DNA of 64,000 bases, taken from assembly GCA_964247745.1 (NCBI GenBank), contig CAXTVT010000003.1, positions 23,835-87,834 on the forward strand. The letters run 5' to 3'. A model generated the notes under the pieces. It was not told where the DNA came from. It did no database searches and worked only from the letters and a program-made list of their open reading frames with translations. A program made the translations under genes and the position numbers. Shown here piece by piece: positions 5,214 to 52,280 of this stretch. The stretch is from an uncultured Beijerinckiaceae bacterium. GTDB lineage: Bacteria > Pseudomonadota > Alphaproteobacteria > Rhizobiales > Beijerinckiaceae. Each line of letters opens with the position of its first letter. Position 1 is the first letter of the stretch.

Positions 5214-5957
5214 TCAGGCGAACAGCATCCAGATCGCCATCGCCACCATCATCACGTTCTCGGTCAGCGACACGAACCCGAGCGGCACGTTGGAGCCGCC
5301 GCCGACGCAGGCGCATTTCAGTTCGCGCTTCTCGACATAGACCGCGTAGAACACCGACACCGCGCCAACGCTGCCGATGAACAGGGCGACGGGAATCGCG
5401 ATCCAGCGTAGCGCGCCGGAGATCATCAGCACGCCGGCCAGCGCCTCGGCGAACGCATAGATGTAGGCGTAGGGCACCCAGCGCTTGGCGAGCAGGTCGT
5501 AGCCGAGGAACATGGAGGAGAACGTCTCCACGTTCTGAAGCTTCTGGATGGCGAGCACGCACATCGAGAACGCGATGAACCATTCCCCGGCGCGGATCGT
5601 GAACGGCGTGCCGTAGGCTGCCTCGCTGGCAGCCAGCGCCATGAGCGCGGTCATCGCGAAGATCGCGACCACAGGCTTGTAGGTCGTCGCCTTGGGGTCC
5701 ACGACCGCCTTGCCGAGGTGGCGGCGGAGATCGTCGTAGCCGCCAATGCGGCGATCGTCGATGAAGATCTGCGGCGTGGTCTTGACGCCCTGCTCCGCCT
5801 TGAAGGATTCGGTCGCATCGCGCGTTCGCAGCGGATGATCGTCCAGCGCGAAGCCCTGACGCTTCAGCAGCGCCTTGGCCTTCAGGCCGAACGGGCACGT
5901 GTGCCCGTCCATGTCCATGCGATACAGGGCGGCTCGGCTTGCGGCGGCGGCGGTCAT
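5214..5957 (-). CDS. Glutaredoxin-like plus MauE/DoxX family redox-associated membrane protein
   Basis: N-terminal HTCPFGLKA / TTPQIFI / IGGYDDL glutaredoxin-like segment, then TM helices and ELKCACVGG...PLGFVSLTEN. Start set at MTAAAAS (5957). Confidence 0.8.
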   Translation of the reverse strand: MTAAAASRAALYRMDMDGHTCPFGLKAKALLKRQGFALDDHPLRTRDATESFKAEQGVKTTPQIFIDDRRIGGYDDLRRHLGKAVVDPKATTYKPVVAIFAMTALMALAASEAAYGTPFTIRAGEWFIAFSMCVLAIQKLQNVETFSSMFLGYDLLAKRWVPYAYIYAFAEALAGVLMISGALRWIAIPVALFIGSVGAVSVFYAVYVEKRELKCACVGGGSNVPLGFVSLTENVMMVAMAIWMLFA

Positions 5958-6038
5958 GGCATCCTCGGGCGTGAAACGCGTTGCCACGACGTGGGGATGC
6001 CGAGCGCCGGCCGCCACGTGTCGACGGCGCCGACGGCC

Positions 6039-6227
6039 CTACATCTTCTTCATGTGATGGGGCGTCTTGTGGCGCTTTGCCTTGCTCTTGCCCGTGTCGA
6101 TCTTGCTTGGCGCGTCCTGCATCGGCACGGACTTGCCGTCCGGCGAGTTGGGCTGCATCTGCTCCTGCGCAAAAGCGGTACCGCCGACGGTGGCGACGAA
6201 AAGGATGGCGATGATCGCGACGCGCAC
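6039..6227 (-). CDS. Small secreted hypothetical protein (62 aa)
   Basis: Signal peptide MRVAIIAILFVATVGGTAFA, basic C-terminus, GGGAG RBS upstream of a GTG start. Confidence 0.6.
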   Translation of the reverse strand: MRVAIIAILFVATVGGTAFAQEQMQPNSPDGKSVPMQDAPSKIDTGKSKAKRHKTPHHMKKM

Positions 6228-6254
6228 AGGCTGATCTCCCTTTAAAGCAACACA

Positions 6255-6280
6255 AACATCGGGCTGCTCGGCGGCGTTCC
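6255..6280 (-). promoter_or_regulatory. EcfG/sigmaT (general stress response)-like promoter
   Basis: Minus strand GGAAC-N17-TGTT, ~28 nt upstream of the 62-aa ORF; matches the alphaproteobacterial EcfG consensus GGAAC-N16/17-(C)GTT. Confidence 0.55.
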
Positions 6281-6308
6281 GCTCCAGCCTCGCGTCGAAC
6301 GGGAGAGG

Positions 6309-7376
6309 TTACGGGCGGCGCGCCTCGAAGACGGGCGGCCAATCCTCCGGCAGGGCGCCGGGGCAGGCGTCCAACGCGGCCGCCGTCAGCAGAGCGAAAA
6401 TCTCGCCGGTCCAGACCCAGGTCCGCGAGGCGCCGCAATCGCCGAGCCCGCGCCCCTTGTCGAGGCTGGTCAGCGTCAGCGTCTTCGGGTCGAACTCATA
6501 ATTGACGACCACATTCTCGGCTTCGGCATCGCCCTGACGGGGCGGCTCCTCGAGCATGGCGGGCCGCGGCTGCTCGCCCTTGGCATCGGTGGTGAAGAGC
6601 GCCACCGAGACGTTGTCGGGACTTTCGACGCAAGGCACCGCGACAAGCCGGCGATCGGAGCCGAGCGACCAGGCGGCGGTCTCGCTGTGAGCCTCGACGA
6701 CCTCGGGGTCGCACGCCGGCTTGGCCATGTCGAGCAGCGCGCGGCTCGGCGTCGGGCTAGCGACGGCAGCGGCGAGGATGCCGGCCGGCTGCACAAGCGG
6801 GACCGGGACGGGGGTTCGAGGCACGAACGGCGCCGCGCCGCGCGCGACGAGAGCGCTCGCCGTTCCCACGCGCCCCTGGCGCTCGTCGACGAAACGCAGC
6901 GCGGCATTCAATCCCTTCGAGGGCAGCCGTCCCTTCAGCGTGCCGGCGGCGTAGTCGAGGGTGTCGGCGGTCGCGAACCTCGTCAGGAAACCGGCATCCG
7001 GGATGTCACCGGCGAGCGCCGCACCGTCGGGATCGTCCTTGGTCGCAGCAACGGACAAGGCGTCGCTCGTCTTGGGGGCCTTGCCGGTGACCGTCAGTTG
7101 GAACGCGCGCGGCGCACCGGCGATCGGATCGGAGGCGGCGAGGACCACCTTGATCTTGGGCGACGGGTCGGACGCACCCAGCGCGACACGCACGTAGAAC
7201 AGGCCGTCGCCGTCGTCGCTGCTGCCGATGGCGACGCAGTTCAGCAGGTTGTCGCAGGTCGCGGTCCAGCCCTCGAAGGTCTTGCTGACGGAAGGCGCGG
7301 CTTTCGGGGTTGCCGCTTGGCACGGCATGGCGATCGACACGACGAAGGCGAGCGCGACGCTCGAAGCAATGCGCAT
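6309..7376 (-). CDS. Secreted protein, DUF1176-like
   Basis: Signal peptide; FEGWTATCDNLLNCVA, ALRFVDERQGRVGT and C-terminal KGRGLGDCG...WVWTG motifs resemble DUF1176. Confidence 0.75.
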   Translation of the reverse strand: MRIASSVALAFVVSIAMPCQAATPKAAPSVSKTFEGWTATCDNLLNCVAIGSSDDGDGLFYVRVALGASDPSPKIKVVLAASDPIAGAPRAFQLTVTGKAPKTSDALSVAATKDDPDGAALAGDIPDAGFLTRFATADTLDYAAGTLKGRLPSKGLNAALRFVDERQGRVGTASALVARGAAPFVPRTPVPVPLVQPAGILAAAVASPTPSRALLDMAKPACDPEVVEAHSETAAWSLGSDRRLVAVPCVESPDNVSVALFTTDAKGEQPRPAMLEEPPRQGDAEAENVVVNYEFDPKTLTLTSLDKGRGLGDCGASRTWVWTGEIFALLTAAALDACPGALPEDWPPVFEARRP

Positions 7377-7383
7377 CTGGACC

Positions 7384-7917
7384 TCACTGGAGCGGGTAGA
7401 TCGCCTCGGTCACGTATGGGCCGCCGCCGACCGAGTCGCGGGACGAGAACAGGGCGAAGCGATCGCAATGGAACTCGCGCGCGGCCAGCCAGCCGCGCAA
7501 CGCGAGAAAGTCCGCCACGGCGCGCGACGGCGTGTTCTTGAGACGGGCGAGCGTAACGTGCGGCACGAACTTGCGTGTCTCAGCCGGCAGGCCGATGCGT
7601 CGCATCAAGCGCTCGTGCTCGGCCTGGAGCTCGACCAGCGGGGCCGCGGGGCGTGCCGTCGCGACCAGCGCGCGGGGCTTAGACCCGCCGAACGCGTCGA
7701 GGGCGGCGAGCGTCATCGCGAAAGCCGGACGCCGGACCAGGGAGAGTGCGTCGTGGACGTCGTTTGCCACGACGCGGTCGACGTCACCGATGAATCGGAG
7801 CGTGACGTGGTAGTTCGCGGCGTCGATCCAGCGGGCGCCGGCGAGGCCGCCGCGGATCCTGTCGAGCTCGGCGGCAAGCCGGTCCGGCAATTCGAGGCCC
7901 GTGAAGAGGCGAGGCAT
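7384..7917 (-). CDS. thpR: RNA 2',3'-cyclic phosphodiesterase (2H family)
   Basis: MPRLFTGLE start and two HxT motifs (YHVTLRF, FVPHVTLAR). Confidence 0.92.
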   Translation of the reverse strand: MPRLFTGLELPDRLAAELDRIRGGLAGARWIDAANYHVTLRFIGDVDRVVANDVHDALSLVRRPAFAMTLAALDAFGGSKPRALVATARPAAPLVELQAEHERLMRRIGLPAETRKFVPHVTLARLKNTPSRAVADFLALRGWLAAREFHCDRFALFSSRDSVGGGPYVTEAIYPLQ

Positions 7918-7984
7918 GGGTTCCGCCGGGATACGGCGATGCCCGGACCGTCGCCGGGCATCGGGTGGAAGCGACCGGGTGCGG

Positions 7985-8908
7985 CTACTTGCCCGGCGCG
8001 TCGCCGCCGGCCGGCGCTTCGTTCGCGGCTGGCGGTGCGGCGGCCGTGCGCTCGATCTTGGCGCCGTTGCGCAGTTGCAGGATCAGGTCGCTCTGCGCCT
8101 TCTGCACGGCGTAGCGCACGATCTGCTCCTTCACCTGATCGAACGGCGGGAACGACTTGGTGCGGTGTCCCTCGACCTGGATGACGTGCCAGCCGAACTG
8201 CGTCTTCACGGGATCGGAGATCTGGCCGTCCTGCAGCTTGAAGGCGGCGTCGGCGAACGCCGGCACCATGCGCTCCTTGGTGAACCAGCCGAGGTCGCCG
8301 CCCTCGGATCCCGGATCCTTCGACATCTCCTTGGCGACCTTCGCGAAATCCTCGCCGGCCTTGAGCCGCTTCAGAACGGTCTGGGCGTCGGCCTCGGTCG
8401 CCACCAGCACGTGGCGGGCGTGAATCTCGGGCTCCGGCTTCTGGGCCGCCGCCGCCTGATCGTAGATCTTGTGGAGAGTGGCGTCGTCGGTCACGGATTT
8501 GGCGATGCCGGTCAGCATCGATTCCATCAGCACCTTGTCCTTGGCGTATTCCATCTTCGCGGCGAAATCGGGCGTCTTCTCCGCACCGTCCGCCTTGGCC
8601 TTCTGCGCCACCAAGGTCGAGTCGACGAGGTAGTCGAGAACGTAGGAATCGCGCGCCCTGCCCTTGAGCTGCTGTTGAAGCTGCGGCCCGAGGTCCTCGG
8701 CGGCAAGCGTGACGTCGAGCTGCGTGATCTTCTGCCCGTTGACGGTGGCGAGCACGGTCTGGGGCGGCGGCGGCGGAACGTCTGGCGCGGCGGTCGTGGG
8801 CATCGCCGGCATCGGCGATGCCGCGGGGGTCTGGGCGAAGGCCGACGGCGCCGCGAGGGCGACTGCGGCGGCGATGACGCTCGCGCGCGTTCCCTTGGCT
8901 AACTTCAT
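7985..8908 (-). CDS. Parvulin-type peptidylprolyl isomerase (PpiC/SurA-like), secreted
   Basis: Signal peptide; IHARHVLV, DFAKVAKEMSKDPGS, GGDLGWF, PVKTQFGWHVI. Confidence 0.93.
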   Translation of the reverse strand: MKLAKGTRASVIAAAVALAAPSAFAQTPAASPMPAMPTTAAPDVPPPPPQTVLATVNGQKITQLDVTLAAEDLGPQLQQQLKGRARDSYVLDYLVDSTLVAQKAKADGAEKTPDFAAKMEYAKDKVLMESMLTGIAKSVTDDATLHKIYDQAAAAQKPEPEIHARHVLVATEADAQTVLKRLKAGEDFAKVAKEMSKDPGSEGGDLGWFTKERMVPAFADAAFKLQDGQISDPVKTQFGWHVIQVEGHRTKSFPPFDQVKEQIVRYAVQKAQSDLILQLRNGAKIERTAAAPPAANEAPAGGDAPGK

Positions 8909-45688: not shown

Positions 45689-45839
45689 GGTTCGAATTTC
45701 CCTGCGCTGTGCCGGCGGTCTATGCGCCAACGGCGACGCGCGGACAACGTCGCGCTTCTCAAGACGAGGCCGAACGCGGTAGGCTGTCGGCGATGATCTA
45801 CGACACGCCCGGGCTCGCGTGAAGGTCGTTGGAGAGCCC

Positions 45840-47054
45840 ATGATCTACCAGGCCTACCAGGCGCAGAAGACCGCCTTCGACCTGATGCGGCCGCTCGCAT
45901 CGCTGATGGCCACCAACCTGCGGCTGCCGTGGCCGAGCCTCGCGCCGCGCACGATGGCGACGGCGGCCGCCAAGCTCGACGTCTTCGCCGCCCTCCGCAT
46001 CGACGAGTCCCGGCCGGCCTTCGCGCTGGAACCGATCGACATCGGCAACCGCCGCGTCGCGGTGGAGGAGGAGGTCGTCGCCGCGACGCCCTTCGCCAGC
46101 CTGCTGCACTTCAAGAAGGACCTGGAGCAGGCGCAGCCGCGCGTGCTCGTCGTCGCACCGATGTCGGGCCATTTCGCGACGCTGCTGCGCGCCACCGTGC
46201 AGACCCTGCTGATCGACCACGACGTCTACATCACCGATTGGCACAACATCCGCGACGTGCCCCGGGCGGCCGGCCCGTTCTCGCTCTCGACCTACGTCGA
46301 GGAGGTGATGGGCATGCTGCGCACGCTCGGCGAGGGCACGCACGTGGTCGCCGTGTGCCAGCCGGTGGTGCCGGCGCTCGCCGCCGCCGCGCTGATGGCC
46401 GAGGACGACGATCCCGCCCAGCCGCGCAGCCTGACCCTGATGGGCGGCCCGGTCGACGCGCGCTGCAACCCGACCGAGGTCAACAAGCTGGCGCTGACTA
46501 AGCCGATCGAATGGTTCGAGGAAAAACTCACCGACGCCGTGCCGGCCGGCTTCAAGGGCGCGGGCCGGCGCGTCTACCCCGGCTTCCTACAGCTCACCGC
46601 CTTCCTCGCGATGAACCCGGAGCGCCACAAGAAGGCCTGGGCCGACATGGGATCGGCGCTCGTCGCCGGCGACGCCGCGGGCTACGCCTTCGGCAAGAAT
46701 TTCTACGACGAATATCTCGCAGTGATGGACCTCTCGGCCGAGTTCTACCTCGAGACGGTGCGCGAGGTGTTCCAGACCTACGCCCTGGCCAAGGGCGAGC
46801 TCGTCATCTCCGGCCGCAAGGTCGATCCCGGCGCGCTGCGCCGCACCGCGCTGCTGACCGTCGAGGGCGAGCGCGACGACATCTGCGGCCTCGGCCAGAC
46901 CATGGCCGCCCACGACCTCTGCCGCAACCTGCGCCCCTACCGCAAGGTGCACCACGTCCAGACCGGCGTCGGCCATTACGGCGTCTTCAGCGGCCGCCGC
47001 TGGCGGACCGAGGTGTACCCGAAGGTGCGCGACGTGATCGCGATGGCGGGGTGA
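45840..47054 (+). CDS. phaZ: Intracellular polyhydroxyalkanoate depolymerase
   Basis: VVAPMSGHFATLLR, DVYITDW, VAVCQP, LMGGPVD, RRVYPGFLQL, TVEGERDDI, GHYGVFSG. Confidence 0.93.
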   Translation: MIYQAYQAQKTAFDLMRPLASLMATNLRLPWPSLAPRTMATAAAKLDVFAALRIDESRPAFALEPIDIGNRRVAVEEEVVAATPFASLLHFKKDLEQAQPRVLVVAPMSGHFATLLRATVQTLLIDHDVYITDWHNIRDVPRAAGPFSLSTYVEEVMGMLRTLGEGTHVVAVCQPVVPALAAAALMAEDDDPAQPRSLTLMGGPVDARCNPTEVNKLALTKPIEWFEEKLTDAVPAGFKGAGRRVYPGFLQLTAFLAMNPERHKKAWADMGSALVAGDAAGYAFGKNFYDEYLAVMDLSAEFYLETVREVFQTYALAKGELVISGRKVDPGALRRTALLTVEGERDDICGLGQTMAAHDLCRNLRPYRKVHHVQTGVGHYGVFSGRRWRTEVYPKVRDVIAMAG

Positions 47055-47063
47055 GGGGGAACC

Positions 47064-50000
47064 TCAAGCAGCGAAGCGGTCGCCGTCTGCGGTGACGCGG
47101 CCGTAGCGCACCAGCGTACCGAGAACCTGGATCACCCGCTGCTCGACGCGCTTGCCGCCGCGGTTGAAGCCGCGCGCGATCTCGGTGGCCGTCATCGGAC
47201 GCCCGGCGGCGCGCAGGGCACGCTCCACGACCAGCGGATGCTCCTGGCGGTTCGACGGGAAGGCGGGCAGACCAACCGCTGCCACGGGCGCCACCACTTC
47301 GGGCAAGTCGAGCTCGCCGGTGGTTTCCTGCGCGGCGGCGACCTGCTTGCCGAAGCGCGGGATCTGGTACTCGGGCCGTAGCCAGCGCACGAGGCCGGCG
47401 GCCTCCTCCCTGGCGCGCTCGGCGTTGAGCGCGACGAGCCGCGCGAGGATCTCGTCGTCGGAGAGGTCGACCGGCCAGCCGTAGGCCTCCGCCGTCAGCC
47501 GGTCGATCTGCTCGTGCAACTCCTTGAGGATGAGCACGAGGCCGCGATCCTTGACGTCCTCGTCCTTCGGCGTCAGCGCCGTGCCAATCTTGAGCTTTTC
47601 GAGGACGTTGTAGATTTCCGTATAACTTAGTTCGTTGTTATTTTCGAGAGCTGTTTTTCGATGATGCTCAAGGGCATAAGCGGCCGATGAAAGGGACGTT
47701 TTATTCTTGTCGGTTGTTTGCGGAAACGGGAGTGGTTCGAAACAAGTCGTATTATTATAAACAGGGTCATTTCCCTTACCCACGCGCCCGCCAATGGCAA
47801 AAGACCACGTCGTATGAAATCGCGAACTCATCACAGCTAAAAGCCAAAACTGATCCGATGCTACGACTCTGATTTTTTGATCCGGTATTATCTCATTTTT
47901 TACGAAAGTAAACCATCGATGTTTAGCAGTTTCAGCTGTTGCGATGAAAAAAGGTATGTCCTTGATCGCCTCCCTTAAACCAGGCCGCGGCTCGCCGAAG
48001 ATCCACCAATTCTTTCGATGATTATCGCGGATAACCTGGTCTCGAAGAGGTTTAACCTTCTCTAGAACATGCTGGTATGCGTGAGGATAATTCTGTCGTG
48101 ATTGCTCGGCCGTAAGCCCGAAAAAGTCTATGATGGGTTTGCTATTTCGATTGTAGGCAAGCGCACGACCACCCAGATAAGGTTTTATTATACTGTCTTG
48201 TTTTTGATCAAGGATCTTAATTCGCTCTGCCACGCCTTCACTTAATACGAATTCGAGAGACACAGGTATGACACCCATGAAAGATAACTTTTTATTCTGC
48301 AAAAGAGGCTTAGCGCTCGCTAGAGAGGCGCCGATTGAAAGCATAGAATTGATTGGACCGATTTTCGCGGGACCGAGGGTATCGCTATCGGCAAATCCAC
48401 CTTTTCTATTTAAGACCTGTTGCAGAGAACCGGAGAAGACACCCTTTCGAGCGACCGTCATCGCAATTCTGATGGAGGCAGACTGATCGCCGATCACCCA
48501 TGGATGGTCGGGTATAGCAAAAATTATTGAGACACTTTTTTTAGCGCCGAGATAAGATTGGACAACCGCCCTATTAAAAATCATTACAATCGAGTTGGTG
48601 GAAACCAACCCAAATCTGCGTATGCGCCCTTCGGCAAGTAGTTTGGCAGATTCACTCCACCAATACATTACGAAATCAGCATTTTCGGCAACATCTGTTC
48701 GGACTTTACGAAGGGCGCTACTGTATTCTGTGCCAAGCCTATCGTTCATGCGTTTGTTGCCGATAAACGGCGGATTGCCGACGATGAACTCCGCTTCTGG
48801 CCACACCGGTAGTCGCGCCCGCGGGTACGTCGCAATTTTTTTACTATCCCGCTCGACAAACGTCGGCACCGGATATCCATCCCACGTCAGCACTGCGTCG
48901 TACCCGCCGCGCAGCCCAAAGTTGATGTTTTTAAAATCCTTCAAAATCGGCTCGCTCGGGTGCCCCGTCCGGGTGAGATAATGCTGCTGCAGATAGCCGA
49001 TCCAGATCACCAGTTCGGCGATGGCGGCGGCGCGCGGGTTGATCTCCAGGCCGAGGAAGCGGTGCGGGTCGACCTCCTCCAGCCCCAACGTCTCCAGCCC
49101 GAGCTTGGCCAGCACCTCCAGCACCTCGCCTTCCAGACGCTTCATCAGCTCAAGCGACACGTAGAGGAAGTTGCCGGTGCCGCAGGCCGGGTCGAGCACG
49201 CGGGTGGCGCAGAGCTGGGCGTGGAAAGCGCGGGCGGCGGCGATGGCCTTGGCATTGTCACCTTCGTCCTTAGCCTGCTCGACCCTGGTCAGCGCCGCCT
49301 GCCAGTCGGCGCGCAGCGGCTCCATGATCGTGACGTCGACGAGGCGCTGCACGTAGGCGCGTGGCGTGTAATGCGCGCCGAGCTTGCGCCGCTCGGCCTT
49401 GTCCAGCGCCTGCTCCAACAGTGTGCCGAAGATCGCCGGGTCGACCTCCTTCCAGTCGTAGCGGGAGGCGGCGAGCAGCTCGCCGATCTCCTCCTTGCCC
49501 AGCTCGAAGACGGTCGTGGTCTTGAAAAGGCCGCCGTTGAATTTGCGCACGCGCGCCTCGACGACGTGACTGAAGTCCTCGCCCTCGTCCATGTGCTTCC
49601 AGAGCGCCTTCAGGCGATGTCCGAAATGCGTGGGGTCGGCGACGCTCTTCTCCAGCAGCTTGGAGAAGCTCGCCTCCGGCAACAGGCCGATATCCTCGGC
49701 GAACATCGTGAAGAGGCAGCGCATCAGGAAATGCGCGACGTCCTCGGCATTGGCGCCCTTGGCCTCAAGCGCCTTGCTGACCGCGGCGAGGCGCTTGGCG
49801 ATCTCGCGCGTGACGCGCGCCGCGTTCCTGGTGGGATCGAGCGAGAGCGGGTCCGTCCAGACGGTCTTGAGCCGCCCGCGCAGCTTTGGCTTGCGTAGGT
49901 CGTCGAGGTAGATGCGGAAGCCGTTGCGGTCGGGGAAATGCGTGTAGTCGCGGCCCGTGCCGGAGAAGTCTGCGTAGAGTTCGAGACAATGGCCGACGTC

Positions 50001-50456
50001 GCAGACGATCAGGAAGGGCGGCGCCGGCTGGCTCTTATCGAGCAGGAAGACGTAGCGCTCGCCCTGCTGGCGGGCGGAACGCATCATCGCGTCCCACTTG
50101 GCGCCGGTGCCGCGCTTGCCAAGCTTCTCCGGTTCGTCGAGCGGCAGACTCGTTTGTGATCCGCCTTGCTTCAGCAGGTCGTTGCGGGCGCCGGCGAGAC
50201 GGGATTGCTTGGCTTCGAGAATGAAGCAGCCCTTCTTGTAGAGGTCGATACGCTTGGGGGCGTGGATGTCGGCGCTGTCGCGCGGGCGCACGGCGCGCTC
50301 GAAGACGTAGTCGTTGTAGAGGTGGGTGGCGCCGGCAGGCTGCGGCCGCGCGACCTCGAGCACGTCGCACAGCTCGGTCAGGAACAGCTGGTAGTTCGCT
50401 CGCTCGGCGCCGCCTTCGAGGTTGGTCCACCGGCTGAGGAAATCGTCGATCGTCAA
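47064..50456 (-). CDS. MmeI-like Type IIL restriction-modification enzyme (PD-ExK nuclease + N6-adenine DNA methyltransferase + TRD)
   Basis: Probable TTG start at 50456; ERANYQLFLTELC, RIDLYKKGCFILEAK (PD-ExK-like), IFGTLLE, GAHYTP, LDPACGTGNFL (motif I), GNPPF (motif IV). Confidence 0.88.
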   Translation of the reverse strand: MTIDDFLSRWTNLEGGAERANYQLFLTELCDVLEVARPQPAGATHLYNDYVFERAVRPRDSADIHAPKRIDLYKKGCFILEAKQSRLAGARNDLLKQGGSQTSLPLDEPEKLGKRGTGAKWDAMMRSARQQGERYVFLLDKSQPAPPFLIVCDVGHCLELYADFSGTGRDYTHFPDRNGFRIYLDDLRKPKLRGRLKTVWTDPLSLDPTRNAARVTREIAKRLAAVSKALEAKGANAEDVAHFLMRCLFTMFAEDIGLLPEASFSKLLEKSVADPTHFGHRLKALWKHMDEGEDFSHVVEARVRKFNGGLFKTTTVFELGKEEIGELLAASRYDWKEVDPAIFGTLLEQALDKAERRKLGAHYTPRAYVQRLVDVTIMEPLRADWQAALTRVEQAKDEGDNAKAIAAARAFHAQLCATRVLDPACGTGNFLYVSLELMKRLEGEVLEVLAKLGLETLGLEEVDPHRFLGLEINPRAAAIAELVIWIGYLQQHYLTRTGHPSEPILKDFKNINFGLRGGYDAVLTWDGYPVPTFVERDSKKIATYPRARLPVWPEAEFIVGNPPFIGNKRMNDRLGTEYSSALRKVRTDVAENADFVMYWWSESAKLLAEGRIRRFGLVSTNSIVMIFNRAVVQSYLGAKKSVSIIFAIPDHPWVIGDQSASIRIAMTVARKGVFSGSLQQVLNRKGGFADSDTLGPAKIGPINSMLSIGASLASAKPLLQNKKLSFMGVIPVSLEFVLSEGVAERIKILDQKQDSIIKPYLGGRALAYNRNSKPIIDFFGLTAEQSRQNYPHAYQHVLEKVKPLRDQVIRDNHRKNWWIFGEPRPGLREAIKDIPFFIATAETAKHRWFTFVKNEIIPDQKIRVVASDQFWLLAVMSSRFHTTWSFAIGGRVGKGNDPVYNNTTCFEPLPFPQTTDKNKTSLSSAAYALEHHRKTALENNNELSYTEIYNVLEKLKIGTALTPKDEDVKDRGLVLILKELHEQIDRLTAEAYGWPVDLSDDEILARLVALNAERAREEAAGLVRWLRPEYQIPRFGKQVAAAQETTGELDLPEVVAPVAAVGLPAFPSNRQEHPLVVERALRAAGRPMTATEIARGFNRGGKRVEQRVIQVLGTLVRYGRVTADGDRFAA

Positions 50457-50572
50457 ATCAATCCCGTGGCGTGATGTTCGATCGCAAGATGCCTGCGCCG
50501 ACGCGTGCGTCAAGCGGGGGATATCCTCACGCAGCACTCGCAGCGGTTGAACGACCCTGCCATCCTGTGTCG

Positions 50573-50839
50573 ATGAACTCCTATCAGCCCGACCTCTTCG
50601 CCACCGCCGAGCCGGCGCAGCCCTTCGTGGGCCGGGGCGATCCCGATCGGGTGCGGGCGCGGCTAACGCGCATTATGGCCGAGGCGCGGGCGGCGCAGAC
50701 GGTGCCGTGGAGCCGCAACGACGAGGGGATGTACGAGATCATCGTCCCGCAAATGACGAAGTGGCTGCCGGCCGACGAGGCGGCGCGCTGGTGCGCGGAC
50801 TTCACCGCCGAGCTGGCGCGGCTGCGGCGTGGTGCCTGA
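50573..50839 (+). CDS. Small hypothetical protein (88 aa) divergent from the R-M gene
   Basis: MNSYQPDLFATAEP...PDRVRARLTRIMAEARAAQTVPW...VPQMTKWLPADEAARWCADFTAELARL; helical, coding-like. Confidence 0.65.
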   Translation: MNSYQPDLFATAEPAQPFVGRGDPDRVRARLTRIMAEARAAQTVPWSRNDEGMYEIIVPQMTKWLPADEAARWCADFTAELARLRRGA

Positions 50840-50852
50840 AACGGCGTGACGG

Positions 50853-50995
50853 GGGCCATGTCGGCGAACGACCCCCCGGATTCGGGCCATGTCGCGGAAC
50901 GCGGCAATGACAGGGTTCTGTGTCGCGGTACCCTGACATTGGACCGCGATTTTGTCAGGGTACCGCGACTTTGGCGGGGTGAAATGTCAGGTCTC
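50853..50995. repeat. Non-coding tandem array of five ~31-32-bp units with a 17-bp inverted repeat (copy B)
   Basis: TGTC at 50859, 50890, 50921, 50953, 50985; units 1 and 2 share GGGCCATGTCG(GC/CG)GAACG; perfect IR GTCGCGGTACCCTGACA (50922-50938) / TGTCAGGGTACCGCGAC (50953-50969). Confidence 0.65.
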
Positions 50996-51148
50996 GCGCC
51001 ATCGCTCATTGCAGGTATCGCAGCCGAAACAAAGACTTGTCTTCGGCTTCCGTACCGCATAGTGTGCCGGCACGCAATCGCCGCGTTTACATCGCGCGCG
51101 GCTTCTGCCACCTGACAGCCCTCGCCAACCGGAGAGTCCGACCCGCCC

Positions 51149-52280
51149 ATGCGCGCCGAAGCCGAAGCGCTCGCCGAGACCATCAAGCAGTCCGTAGGGC
51201 TGCTGAGGAGGCATCTTTGACGTCGAGGCTTCGACGCGCCGCCTCGCCGAGCTGAACGCCAAGGTCGAGGACCCCAAGCTCTGGGACGATGCCGACGCCG
51301 CGCAGAAGCTGATGCGCGAGCGCACCGATCTCGAGGAGCGGCTGGGCTCGCTGGCCGGGCTCGACGGTTCGCTGGAGGATGCCGTCACGCTGGTGCAGCT
51401 CGGCGAGGACGAGGCGGATGCCGACACCGAGAAGGAGGGCCTCGCCGCCCTGAAGGCCGTGCTGGCCGAGGCCGAGCGGCGCCAGGTCGAGGCGCTGCTG
51501 TCGGGCGAGGTCGACGGCAACGACACCTACATCGAGGTGCATTCCGGCGCCGGTGGCACCGAGAGCTGCGACTGGGCGCGCATGCTGTTTCGGATGTATG
51601 CGCGCTGGGCGGAGCGCCACAAGTTCAAGGTCGAGATCGTCGAGGAAACGTCGGGCGACGAGGCCGGCATCAAGTCGGCGACGCTGCTGGTCAAGGGCCA
51701 CAACGCCCACGGCTGGTCCAAGGTGGAGAGCGGCGTGCACCGGCTGGTGCGCATCTCGCCGTACGATTCGGCGGCGCGGCGCCACACCAGCTTCGCCTCG
51801 GTCTGGGTCTACCCGGTGATCGACGACAAGGTAGACATCGACGTCAAGGAGAGCGACTGCCGGATCGACACCTACCGCTCGTCGGGCGCCGGCGGGCAGC
51901 ACGTCAACACCACCGATTCGGCGGTGCGCATCACCCACATTCCCTCGGGGATCGTGGTGGCCTGCCAGAACGAGCGCTCGCAGCACAAGAACCGCGCGAC
52001 GGCCTGGAACATGCTGCGCGCGCGGCTCTACGAGGCCGAGATGGCGCGGCGGGAGGCCGAGGCCAGCGTCACCGAAGCCTCCAAGGGCGAGATCGGCTGG
52101 GGCCACCAGATCCGCTCCTACGTGCTGCAGCCCTACCAGCTGGTGAAGGACCTGCGCACCGGCCACACGTCGGGCACGCCCGACGATGTGCTGGACGGCG
52201 AGCTCGACGACTTCATGGAGGCGGCGCTGGCCCAGCGCGTCTACGGTGGCGGGCCCGACGCCGTCGACGACGTCGACTAG
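51149..52280 (+). CDS. prfB: Peptide chain release factor 2, with programmed +1 frameshift
   Basis: ATG 51149 MRAEAEALAETIKQSVGLLRRHL, then CTT-TGA-C (51215-51221) preceded by AGGAGG; the +1 frame continues DVEASTRRLAEL...; SPY and GAGGQ motifs present. Confidence 0.97.
51206..51221 (+). promoter_or_regulatory. prfB programmed ribosomal frameshift signal
   Basis: Internal Shine-Dalgarno AGGAGG (51206-51211) followed by slippery CTTTGAC. Confidence 0.95.

Follow-up and report, generated by a model that had tools for sequence, protein, structure and literature searches.

MmeI of Methylophilus methylotrophus, the prototype of the Type IIL restriction-modification (RM) enzymes (PDB 5HR4; Callahan et al. 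2016, PMC4833311), combines in a single chain a PD-(D/E)XK nuclease with the motif D70...E80-x-K82, a helical spacer, a gamma-class N6-adenine methylase, a target-recognition domain (TRD) and a C-terminal helical bundle. In the MmeI family a single TRD sets both cleavage and methylation, and natural TRD exchange was proposed for MmeI homologs by Morgan and Luyten (2009, PMC2731914). In Microcystis aeruginosa PCC7806, the proteins IPF4888 and IPF5080 share 98.5% identity outside the TRD but only 55% within it, and this was read as TRD acquisition by recombination (PMC2731914). Here we analyze an MmeI-family gene (hereafter the query) in a window of 64,000 nt, the whole stretch of DNA under study, from contig CAXTVT010000003.1 of an uncultured Beijerinckiaceae bacterium. 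Our results make it very probable that the query encodes an intact single-chain enzyme in which a cassette from one allele lineage has been joined, through recombination at two conserved motifs, to the scaffold of another.

The query shares the five-part layout of MmeI, although the similarity is remote (E=8e-34) and the protein is longer (1157 aa versus 919), with an extended N-terminus and ~180 extra C-terminal residues. As with IPF4888 and IPF5080, close scaffolds surround a divergent TRD region in an enzyme family where one TRD sets both activities. Unlike that pair, which are paralogs in one genome, the query is compared between lineages; in addition, its divergent block is longer, running for 382 codons from motif IV into the C-terminal bundle, contrasts with the scaffold by 0.45 in GC content at third codon positions (GC3) and has breakpoints mapped to two motifs. 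Recognition domains also move by recombination at conserved flanking sequence in Helicobacter pylori, where the TRDs of Type I, IIG and III systems undergo "domain movement" that diversifies the methylome (Furuta et al. 2011, PMC3077401; 2014, PMC3983042). Those systems belong to another enzyme family in a low-GC, naturally competent host, and a compositional contrast is not among the features given in the excerpted text of the two reports. Similarly, Type I hsdS acquires new specificities when crossovers occur in the conserved sequence on either side of its variable modules (Fuller-Pace et al. 1984; Gubler et al. 1992; both as cited in PMC2731914). As characterized there, however, hsdS is a separate specificity subunit with two half-site TRDs, whereas the query has a single asymmetric TRD fused to the catalytic domains.

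The family assignment, already made in a first-pass annotation from the sequence alone, was borne out by three lines of evidence. Four Pfam MmeI domains score above cutoff (MmeI_N at 32-259, E=1.6e-23; MmeI_hel at 265-338, E=5.7e-18; MmeI_Mtase at 434-681, E=4.7e-28; MmeI_TRD at 762-940, 41.6 bits with a cutoff of 27), the PADLOC model PDLC03627 (REase_MTase_IIG) matches over its full length (E=0), and phmmer aligns query residues 245-515 with MmeI 164-430 and residues 584-960 with MmeI 477-844 in 5HR4, the helical spacer falling on MmeI 164-300. The spacing of D98, E108 and K110 equals that of the MmeI nuclease motif. Both the DPACG of methylase motif I and the NPPF of motif IV (588-591), which are invariant in 105 homologs, are present in the query in the gamma-class N6-adenine methylase order, with motif I N-terminal to motif IV, and an MmeI-type TRD and then a C-terminal helical region follow in the same polypeptide. 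The gene is solitary, with no separate methyltransferase gene, its neighbours being phaZ, a small open reading frame (ORF) without a family match, and prfB. By every sequence-level criterion, then, the gene is predicted to belong to the MmeI / Type IIL family, whose biochemical hallmarks are an asymmetric site, methylation confined to one strand and cleavage ~20/18 nt away. The TRD resembles characterized TRDs of the family too distantly for its recognition residues to be mapped reliably. Its ORF runs without interruption for 1157 codons across the whole AT-rich region described below (Table 1), and the probable start is the TTG at 50456 (1130 aa), since homologs align from residue ~28.

Two ancestries within one reading frame

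Within this single ORF, 200-nt windows have a GC content of 0.42-0.52 between ~47550 and ~48750, down from 0.68-0.74 on either side, and the five hand counts on which the first-pass annotation had based this drop (45, 43, 23, 21 and 23 of 60) were reproduced exactly. The genome (3.65 Mb) has a GC content of 0.679 with a standard deviation of 0.037 among 1-kb windows, just 36 of 14047 of which lie below 0.48, and the drop is far beyond chance. In the middle of the gene GC3 declines from ~0.9 to ~0.43 and first-position GC from ~0.68 to ~0.5, while second-position GC is nearly flat, a pattern that is the signature of coding sequence evolved at lower GC. Amino-acid composition was ruled out as the cause of the low middle GC3, because codon usage in the gene's own flanks would give 0.88 where 0.41 is observed. 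A search for promoters and terminators inside the AT-rich block returned one promoter-like and one terminator-like match in 4.4 kb, no more than in shuffled sequence.

When GC3 is fitted with two change points, the low block runs from codon 553 (support 530-564) to codon 974 (support 972-980), with values of 0.45 inside and 0.88 outside (log-likelihood gain 125.9, p ~3e-54). Adding a third change point separates a core, with a GC3 of 0.43, from a zone of intermediate GC3 (0.68) that covers codons 531-598. The question raised in the first-pass annotation, whether the change is stepwise or gradual, therefore has a different answer at each end: the 3' edge is abrupt (codons 972-980) and the 5' side is graded.

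Ancestry changes along the gene as well. Relative to its closest scaffold homolog, L018 (= P0122), the query has amino-acid identities of 0.88 in the N part, 0.40 in the middle and 0.85 in the C part, whereas every other pair with an N identity of at least 0.8 has a middle identity of at least 0.61 (2415 pairs among 70 family genes). The first-pass annotation had proposed searching the segments separately, and doing so did return different relatives: among 5.8 billion proteins, region-restricted searches found a best match of 88% for residues 30-530 (L018 again, with hundreds near 70%) and of only 55-56% for residues 600-975, the strain's own copy aside. In trees of the N and C segments, the query pairs with L018 (support 100) inside the same five-member clade as L014, P0123 and P0126 (support 100 and 98). 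In the tree of the middle segment it instead sits on a long branch in another clade of 16 members, with P0004, P0014, P0016, P0007, L020 and L022 (support 96), and forcing the five-member clade on this segment costs 123 log-likelihood units (approximately unbiased [AU] test, p 0.044). The segment trees are incongruent, and the segments of the query have significantly different nearest relatives.

The two breakpoints can be placed to the codon. We refer to the middle carried by L018 and L014 as type A and to that of the query and its middle-segment relatives as type B. In the codon alignment the query tracks L018 and L014 through G593 and then takes up the type-B pattern (NKRM...), and third positions turn AT-rich exactly where it leaves the L018/L014 pattern. 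Segment-wise blastn agrees: the nearest DNA is L018 for codons 529-587 (80%), type-B carriers for codons 585-596 (91-94%) and L018 once more for codons 976-1031 (88%). At the 3' end, AT-rich unrelated sequence extends up to codon 975, and downstream of YNVLEKLK the sequence is GC-rich and L018-like. Both breakpoints are thus discrete, coincide with the switches in composition and lie in conserved sequence, NPPFIG and YNVLEKLK, that is usable as a recombination anchor.

These positions modify the boundaries first suggested. The 3' transition does fall at YNVLEKLK, as the first-pass annotation had it, but EPILKDFKNI was rejected as the 5' junction, since codons 529-587 are still L018-like (80% at the nucleotide level) and the switch of relatives occurs at codons 585-596. 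The 5' transition is at NPPFIG, ~190 nt inside position 48950, where the block had been thought to begin. It follows that the AT-rich block contains the whole TRD, as described, but not NPPF, which stands at the junction in scaffold-like codons. L018 shows the same GC3 sag in the intermediate zone, and we assign that zone to the scaffold rather than to the import.

Together these observations uphold the view that a cassette of separate ancestry, consisting of the catalytic methylase half and the TRD, lies in a host-like scaffold. The scaffold comprises the nuclease, the spacer, the S-adenosylmethionine-binding half of the methylase as far as motif IV, and the C part from LYNVLEKLK. It belongs to a GC-rich lineage of Alphaproteobacteria in which the type A middle is carried by all the other members sampled with full-length genes (L018, L014, P0123 and P0126). 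We infer from parsimony on this scaffold clade that codons 594-975 were replaced by a deeply divergent, AT-rich type B cassette, probably by double crossover or gene conversion anchored in the NPPFIG and YNVLEKLK motifs. The cassette spans approximately MmeI residues 487-858, beginning in the methylase just past motif IV, taking in both TRD subdomains and ending in the first part of the C-terminal helical bundle. Of 92 columns with at least 90% conservation in the family it retains 80, with mostly conservative changes at the others, so the hybrid enzyme looks functional. Because one TRD directs both methylation and cleavage in the MmeI family, such a swap would be expected to change the recognition sequence without uncoupling self-protection from cutting.

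As a single locus this case is ordinary, the mechanism having been proposed already in 2009. Nonetheless, it would be a very clean natural example of Type IIL re-targeting, with both breakpoints, one in methylase motif IV and the other in a conserved helix of the C-terminal bundle, mapped to the codon. The natural swap unit is also larger than the TRD alone, which may offer practical guidance for the construction of chimeric MmeI-type enzymes.

A mosaic of this kind could in principle be an artefact, with reads from two organisms joined during assembly or binning, and the genome is a 162-contig draft. An independent metagenome assembly from another sample and another strain (L019; ENA ERZ25070720) nevertheless carries the order rhomboid-prfB-RM-phaZ, colinear over 9 kb at 98.0% nucleotide identity, and the alignment passes through both cassette junctions, although the flanks differ by 2-6%. 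The reading frame is also open, the motifs are intact, and the same architecture recurs in the same-genus genome G007 and at ten other loci. A chimera, which the first-pass annotation had named as a possible refutation, is ruled out by the L019 assembly, and we regard the chance of one as negligible.

Source and composition of the cassette

No donor allele was found among ~15 billion proteins, plasmids or phages, and no match outside the same genus exceeded 56%. When the cassette alone was used, a full HMMER scan of 1.84 billion cluster representatives gave a best identity of 45%, and tblastn gave at best 43.5% in plasmids and no match in phages. The nearest cassettes, at 49-59%, are those of L020 (Brevundimonas sp. 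G8), L022, L101-L104, L112-L115 and G007 (52-59%), and their synonymous sites are saturated relative to the query. The hosts or gene contexts of all their carriers are GC-rich (0.62-0.73 in the DNA around the gene where this was measured), and a clear AT-rich middle is present in every one except L022.

The homolog in G007 has its own type B, AT-rich cassette (GC3 0.44) starting from the same NPPFIG/NKRM junction and ending ~20 codons further downstream than that of the query, and third-position identity between the two at conserved residues is 0.24-0.40, which is saturated. This homolog, L013 (G007:C11, ~5486-8856), carries a frameshift just downstream of NPPFIGNKRM, where its AT-rich cassette begins, leaving ORFs of 607 and 563 aa.

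Several of these findings weigh against the reading of the query as a recombinant of two allele lineages, or at least against parts of it. No donor is at hand, and the nearest cassettes are only 49-59% identical, saturated and, where DNA was examined, themselves AT-rich in GC-rich hosts. The AU p value is only 0.044, and the group that it tests was named after the pairwise identities had been seen. Finally, the N part of G007 is 75% identical to that of the query and yet is joined to a type B cassette, which weakens the parsimony argument on the direction of the event. The claim of the first-pass annotation that the foreign half was recombined "recently" is likewise not borne out, given that there is no donor, the best cassettes are at 49-59% and synonymous sites are saturated; neither a recent import of the cassette nor a low-GC donor is established.

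Composition across the family bears on the same question. Among 69 alphaproteobacterial homologs fetched with their DNA, middle GC3 lies below that of the flanks in 66, with a median difference of 0.12 and the query at the extreme (0.47). The depression averages ~0.19, is confined to codons 715-935 (the TRD) and is not explained by amino-acid composition. No part of the family varies more than the TRD (median pairwise identity 0.56), and pairwise identities of the N part correlate at 0.80 with those of the C part but at only 0.27 with those of the TRD. Codons 600-715, in contrast, form the best-conserved segment (median identity 0.69), with a GC3 dip of 0.00 at the median and 0.23 at most; in the query the dip there is 0.45 and identity to any homolog is 45-57%.

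It could be argued from the variability of the TRD and the family-wide GC3 dip that no exchange took place and that the middle evolved fast in place under diversifying selection and local AT-biased substitution. This explanation seems very unlikely for the query. Each edge can be placed to the codon and falls where the nearest relative changes, the block includes the best-conserved codons 600-715 with the low identity and deep dip just described, and the middle groups with a specific other clade.

Exchange of cassettes is also seen between other members of the family. L023 and L025 share 91-98% of nucleotides in the flanks and 42-75% across codons 721-960, and further swaps with GC-rich flanks separate L055 from L063 and L040 from L053, the last with a block that begins at ~codon 541. 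Thus cassette exchange with variable boundaries is routine in the family. The depth of the dip increases with the discordance between TRD and scaffold (Spearman 0.41, p=0.0025, although the pairs are not independent).

A different view of the AT-richness is that it is a maintained, quasi-stationary property of cassettes circulating among GC-rich alphaproteobacterial MmeI-family genes, rather than the fading mark of a recent import from a low-GC donor; the mosaic would still be true. Its proposed causes, each of them possible, are weaker GC-biased gene conversion in alleles that are too divergent to recombine, a continual short-patch input from alleles richer in AT, and selection on DNA or RNA. 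We consider this account possible but on balance doubtful. It is favored by the family-wide dip at the TRD, by the GC-rich settings of all the type B carriers whose DNA was read, by the lack of a closer low-GC source and by polarized substitution counts. For the counts, third-position changes at conserved residues were polarized by parsimony in the co-diverging clade L112/L113/L114 with L020 and L022. In the cassette, changes from A/T to G/C (W>S, 16-32) and in the reverse direction (S>W, 16-42) imply an equilibrium GC3 of 0.67-0.68 (confidence interval [CI] ~0.51-0.78; 0.51-0.78 for 0.67) beside a present value of 0.71-0.73, which can be taken as equal to it, although parsimony is biased to S>W and the counts are small. 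In the flanks the implied equilibrium is 0.87-0.88 (CI 0.80-0.92) and the present value 0.91-0.94. A Sphingomonas type A trio gave a similar pattern, a gene without a dip gave no difference, and a Rhodopseudomonas pair gave a hint of partial amelioration. The counts thus hint, rather than demonstrate, that a low cassette GC3 may be maintained.

Other evidence speaks against maintenance. In addition to the S>W bias and the small counts, the trios overlap and some of the "substitutions" may themselves be imports by recombination. One trio (L055/L063) seems partly ameliorated, and the deeper dips in more discordant TRDs are as expected if dips fade after import. Moreover, the GC3 of the query cassette (0.43) matches that of defence islands in the same genome that are AT-rich over whole genes (0.45-0.50), which fits a common foreign pool. 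Should a stationary composition nonetheless apply, which we suggest only tentatively, freely recombining scaffolds would stay GC-rich while a cassette that is too divergent for homologous recombination, or repeatedly re-seeded from a pool of AT-rich alleles, would stay AT-rich for long periods inside GC-rich hosts.

For the recombinant reading of the query, this composition is potentially the sole new aspect: a family-wide, possibly stationary AT-richness of the cassette. Among top-ranked papers we found no report of a TRD-specific GC dip; one paper on a Thermus family notes low GC of whole genes only. If AT-richness confined to the TRD were stationary and confirmed, it would bear on the debate over foreign origin versus reduced GC-biased gene conversion as the source of AT-rich accessory DNA in GC-rich bacteria, and a maintained low GC3 in the cassette would, if true, allow the determinants of bacterial GC content to be tested naturally within one gene.

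A distant MmeI-like paralog family of the same genus (L012/L015, G008:C30; 29% identical to the query) likewise passes from a GC3 of 0.94-0.98 to 0.34-0.46 and back to 0.90-0.94.

Strain comparison and history of the locus

Comparison of the window with L019 reveals that divergence is very uneven along the locus. The flanking phaZ and prfB differ by 2.3% and 3.9%, respectively, and the upstream spacer (50538-51206) by 6.4%. In the gene body (47443-50586), in contrast, there are 7 differences in ~3140 nt (0.2%), with only 4 differing sites in the cassette, and 47009-47273 has no differences at all. Between these two stretches lies a hyper-divergent patch in the C-terminal linker (Table 1), a short tract imported from a divergent allele that marks another recombination event; the locus as a whole is thus a fine-scale recombination mosaic. 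Since the flanking genes are 2-6% diverged and the hybrid only 0.2%, the last transfer moved the finished hybrid. The GC-rich N part and the AT-rich middle were thus shared recently between strains as one tract, a unit of no less than 3.1 kb that was transferred or spread by a sweep after the hybrid had formed.

Two further differences between the strains were seen. The spacer between the RM unit and prfB is ~8% different over 50587-51100 and has a 3-nt indel at 50827-50829. At the L019 equivalent of window position 49935, one C is lost from a CCCC run, which separates the nuclease (243 aa) from the methylase and TRD (886 aa); this is either a long-read homopolymer error or a real inactivation of restriction.

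The first-pass annotation took the scaffold to be resident and suggested aligning orthologs at the phaZ-prfB locus of close relatives. No such orthologs exist: RM homologs in relatives occupy other loci, and in none of the searched relatives carrying both phaZ and prfB on assembled contigs are the two genes adjacent, being instead far apart or on different replicons. As phaZ and prfB flank one another only in this lineage, the RM unit stands at a synteny breakpoint. With homologs at other loci and a finished hybrid only 0.2% diverged between strains, residency of the scaffold is not established.

The hybrid may therefore have formed elsewhere and have arrived, or been re-imported, as a complete gene instead of being made here from a resident one, and we judge the chances of this to be about even. 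The positions of the close same-genus homologs, the separation of phaZ and prfB in relatives and the contrast between the nearly invariant gene body and its surroundings (phaZ 2.3%, prfB 3.9%, upstream spacer 6-8%, C-terminal patch 12%) are all in accord with arrival as a unit, as is the small divergent ORF that travels with the gene in L018 and G007. However, these observations would be explained equally by an allele that arose in this lineage and swept locally, and the place of origin is not recoverable without a donor.

Features of the locus and neighbouring genes

Coordinates of the gene, its parts and its neighbours are collected in Table 1.

Table 1. Features at the MmeI-family locus (positions in the 64,000-nt window).
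Feature	Position	Strand	Basis or details
MmeI-family Type IIL/IIG restriction-modification gene	47064..50537	-	ORF, Pfam, PADLOC, 5HR4 alignment
GC-rich N-terminal scaffold, codons 28-593 (nuclease, helical spacer, methylase to motif IV inclusive)	48759..50456	-	GC 0.65, GC3 ~0.9
PD-(D/E)XK nuclease motif D98...E108-A-K110	50208..50246	-	columns 100% conserved, n=105 homologs
Methylase motif I DPACGTGNFL, codons 449-458	49164..49193	-	aligned to MmeI motif I
Intermediate-GC3 zone, codons 531-593	48759..48947	-	GC3 0.68, three-change-point fit
Putative 5' recombination junction at methylase motif IV, NPPFIG, codons 588-593	48759..48776	-	codon alignment, blastn
AT-rich cassette, codons 594-975 (382 codons, 1.15 kb)	47613..48758	-	GC 0.452, GC3 0.43
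Putative 3' recombination junction at YNVLEKLK, codons 976-983	47589..47612	-	24 nt identical to L018; GC3 change point 972-980
GC-rich C-terminal scaffold, codons 976-1157	47064..47612	-	GC 0.70, GC3 ~0.9, 85-86% aa to L018
Hyper-divergent patch, C-terminal linker, codons 1032-1088	47274..47442	-	20 differences/169 nt (12%) vs L019
phaZ (intracellular PHB depolymerase)	45819..47054	+	Pfam PHB_depo_C, E=2.4e-87
Small ORF, <=122 codons, divergent from RM gene	50471..50839	+	tblastn conservation
prfB (peptide chain release factor 2), other flank of RM unit	51207..52280	+	Pfam PCRF and RF-1, high-GC3 frame

The phaZ gene is convergent with the RM gene and ends 9 nt from its stop codon. Upstream of the RM homologs, tblastn recovers the small divergent ORF in L018 (73%), G007 (60%), L082 (49%) and L019 (98%), and in L018 it matches an annotated gene of 106 aa. 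Pfam gave no significant match for the small upstream ORFs, and this ORF, which accompanies the RM gene, may encode its regulator or a partner. The first-pass annotation had remarked on the absence of any mobile element, and indeed no transposase or integrase domain occurs in the neighbouring genes scanned, although mobile-element genes at the borders, repeats and tRNA genes were not exhaustively sought.

Elsewhere in the same genome (G000) there are other islands of 1-3 kb with a GC content of 0.44-0.50, at C43:11000-14200, C7:61300-64500, C2:6750-8300, C17:47600-49100, C72:6900-7900, C9:35200-38200 and C66:3600-4600. Pfam domains were read on C43, C7, C2, C17 and C72, and several of the islands carry domains typical of defence systems. 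These include a Hachiman-type HamA gene adjoining a weak DEAD-helicase match, an HNH protein, a weak radical-SAM match, and HD-domain proteins situated directly after thrS and after an ABC transporter.

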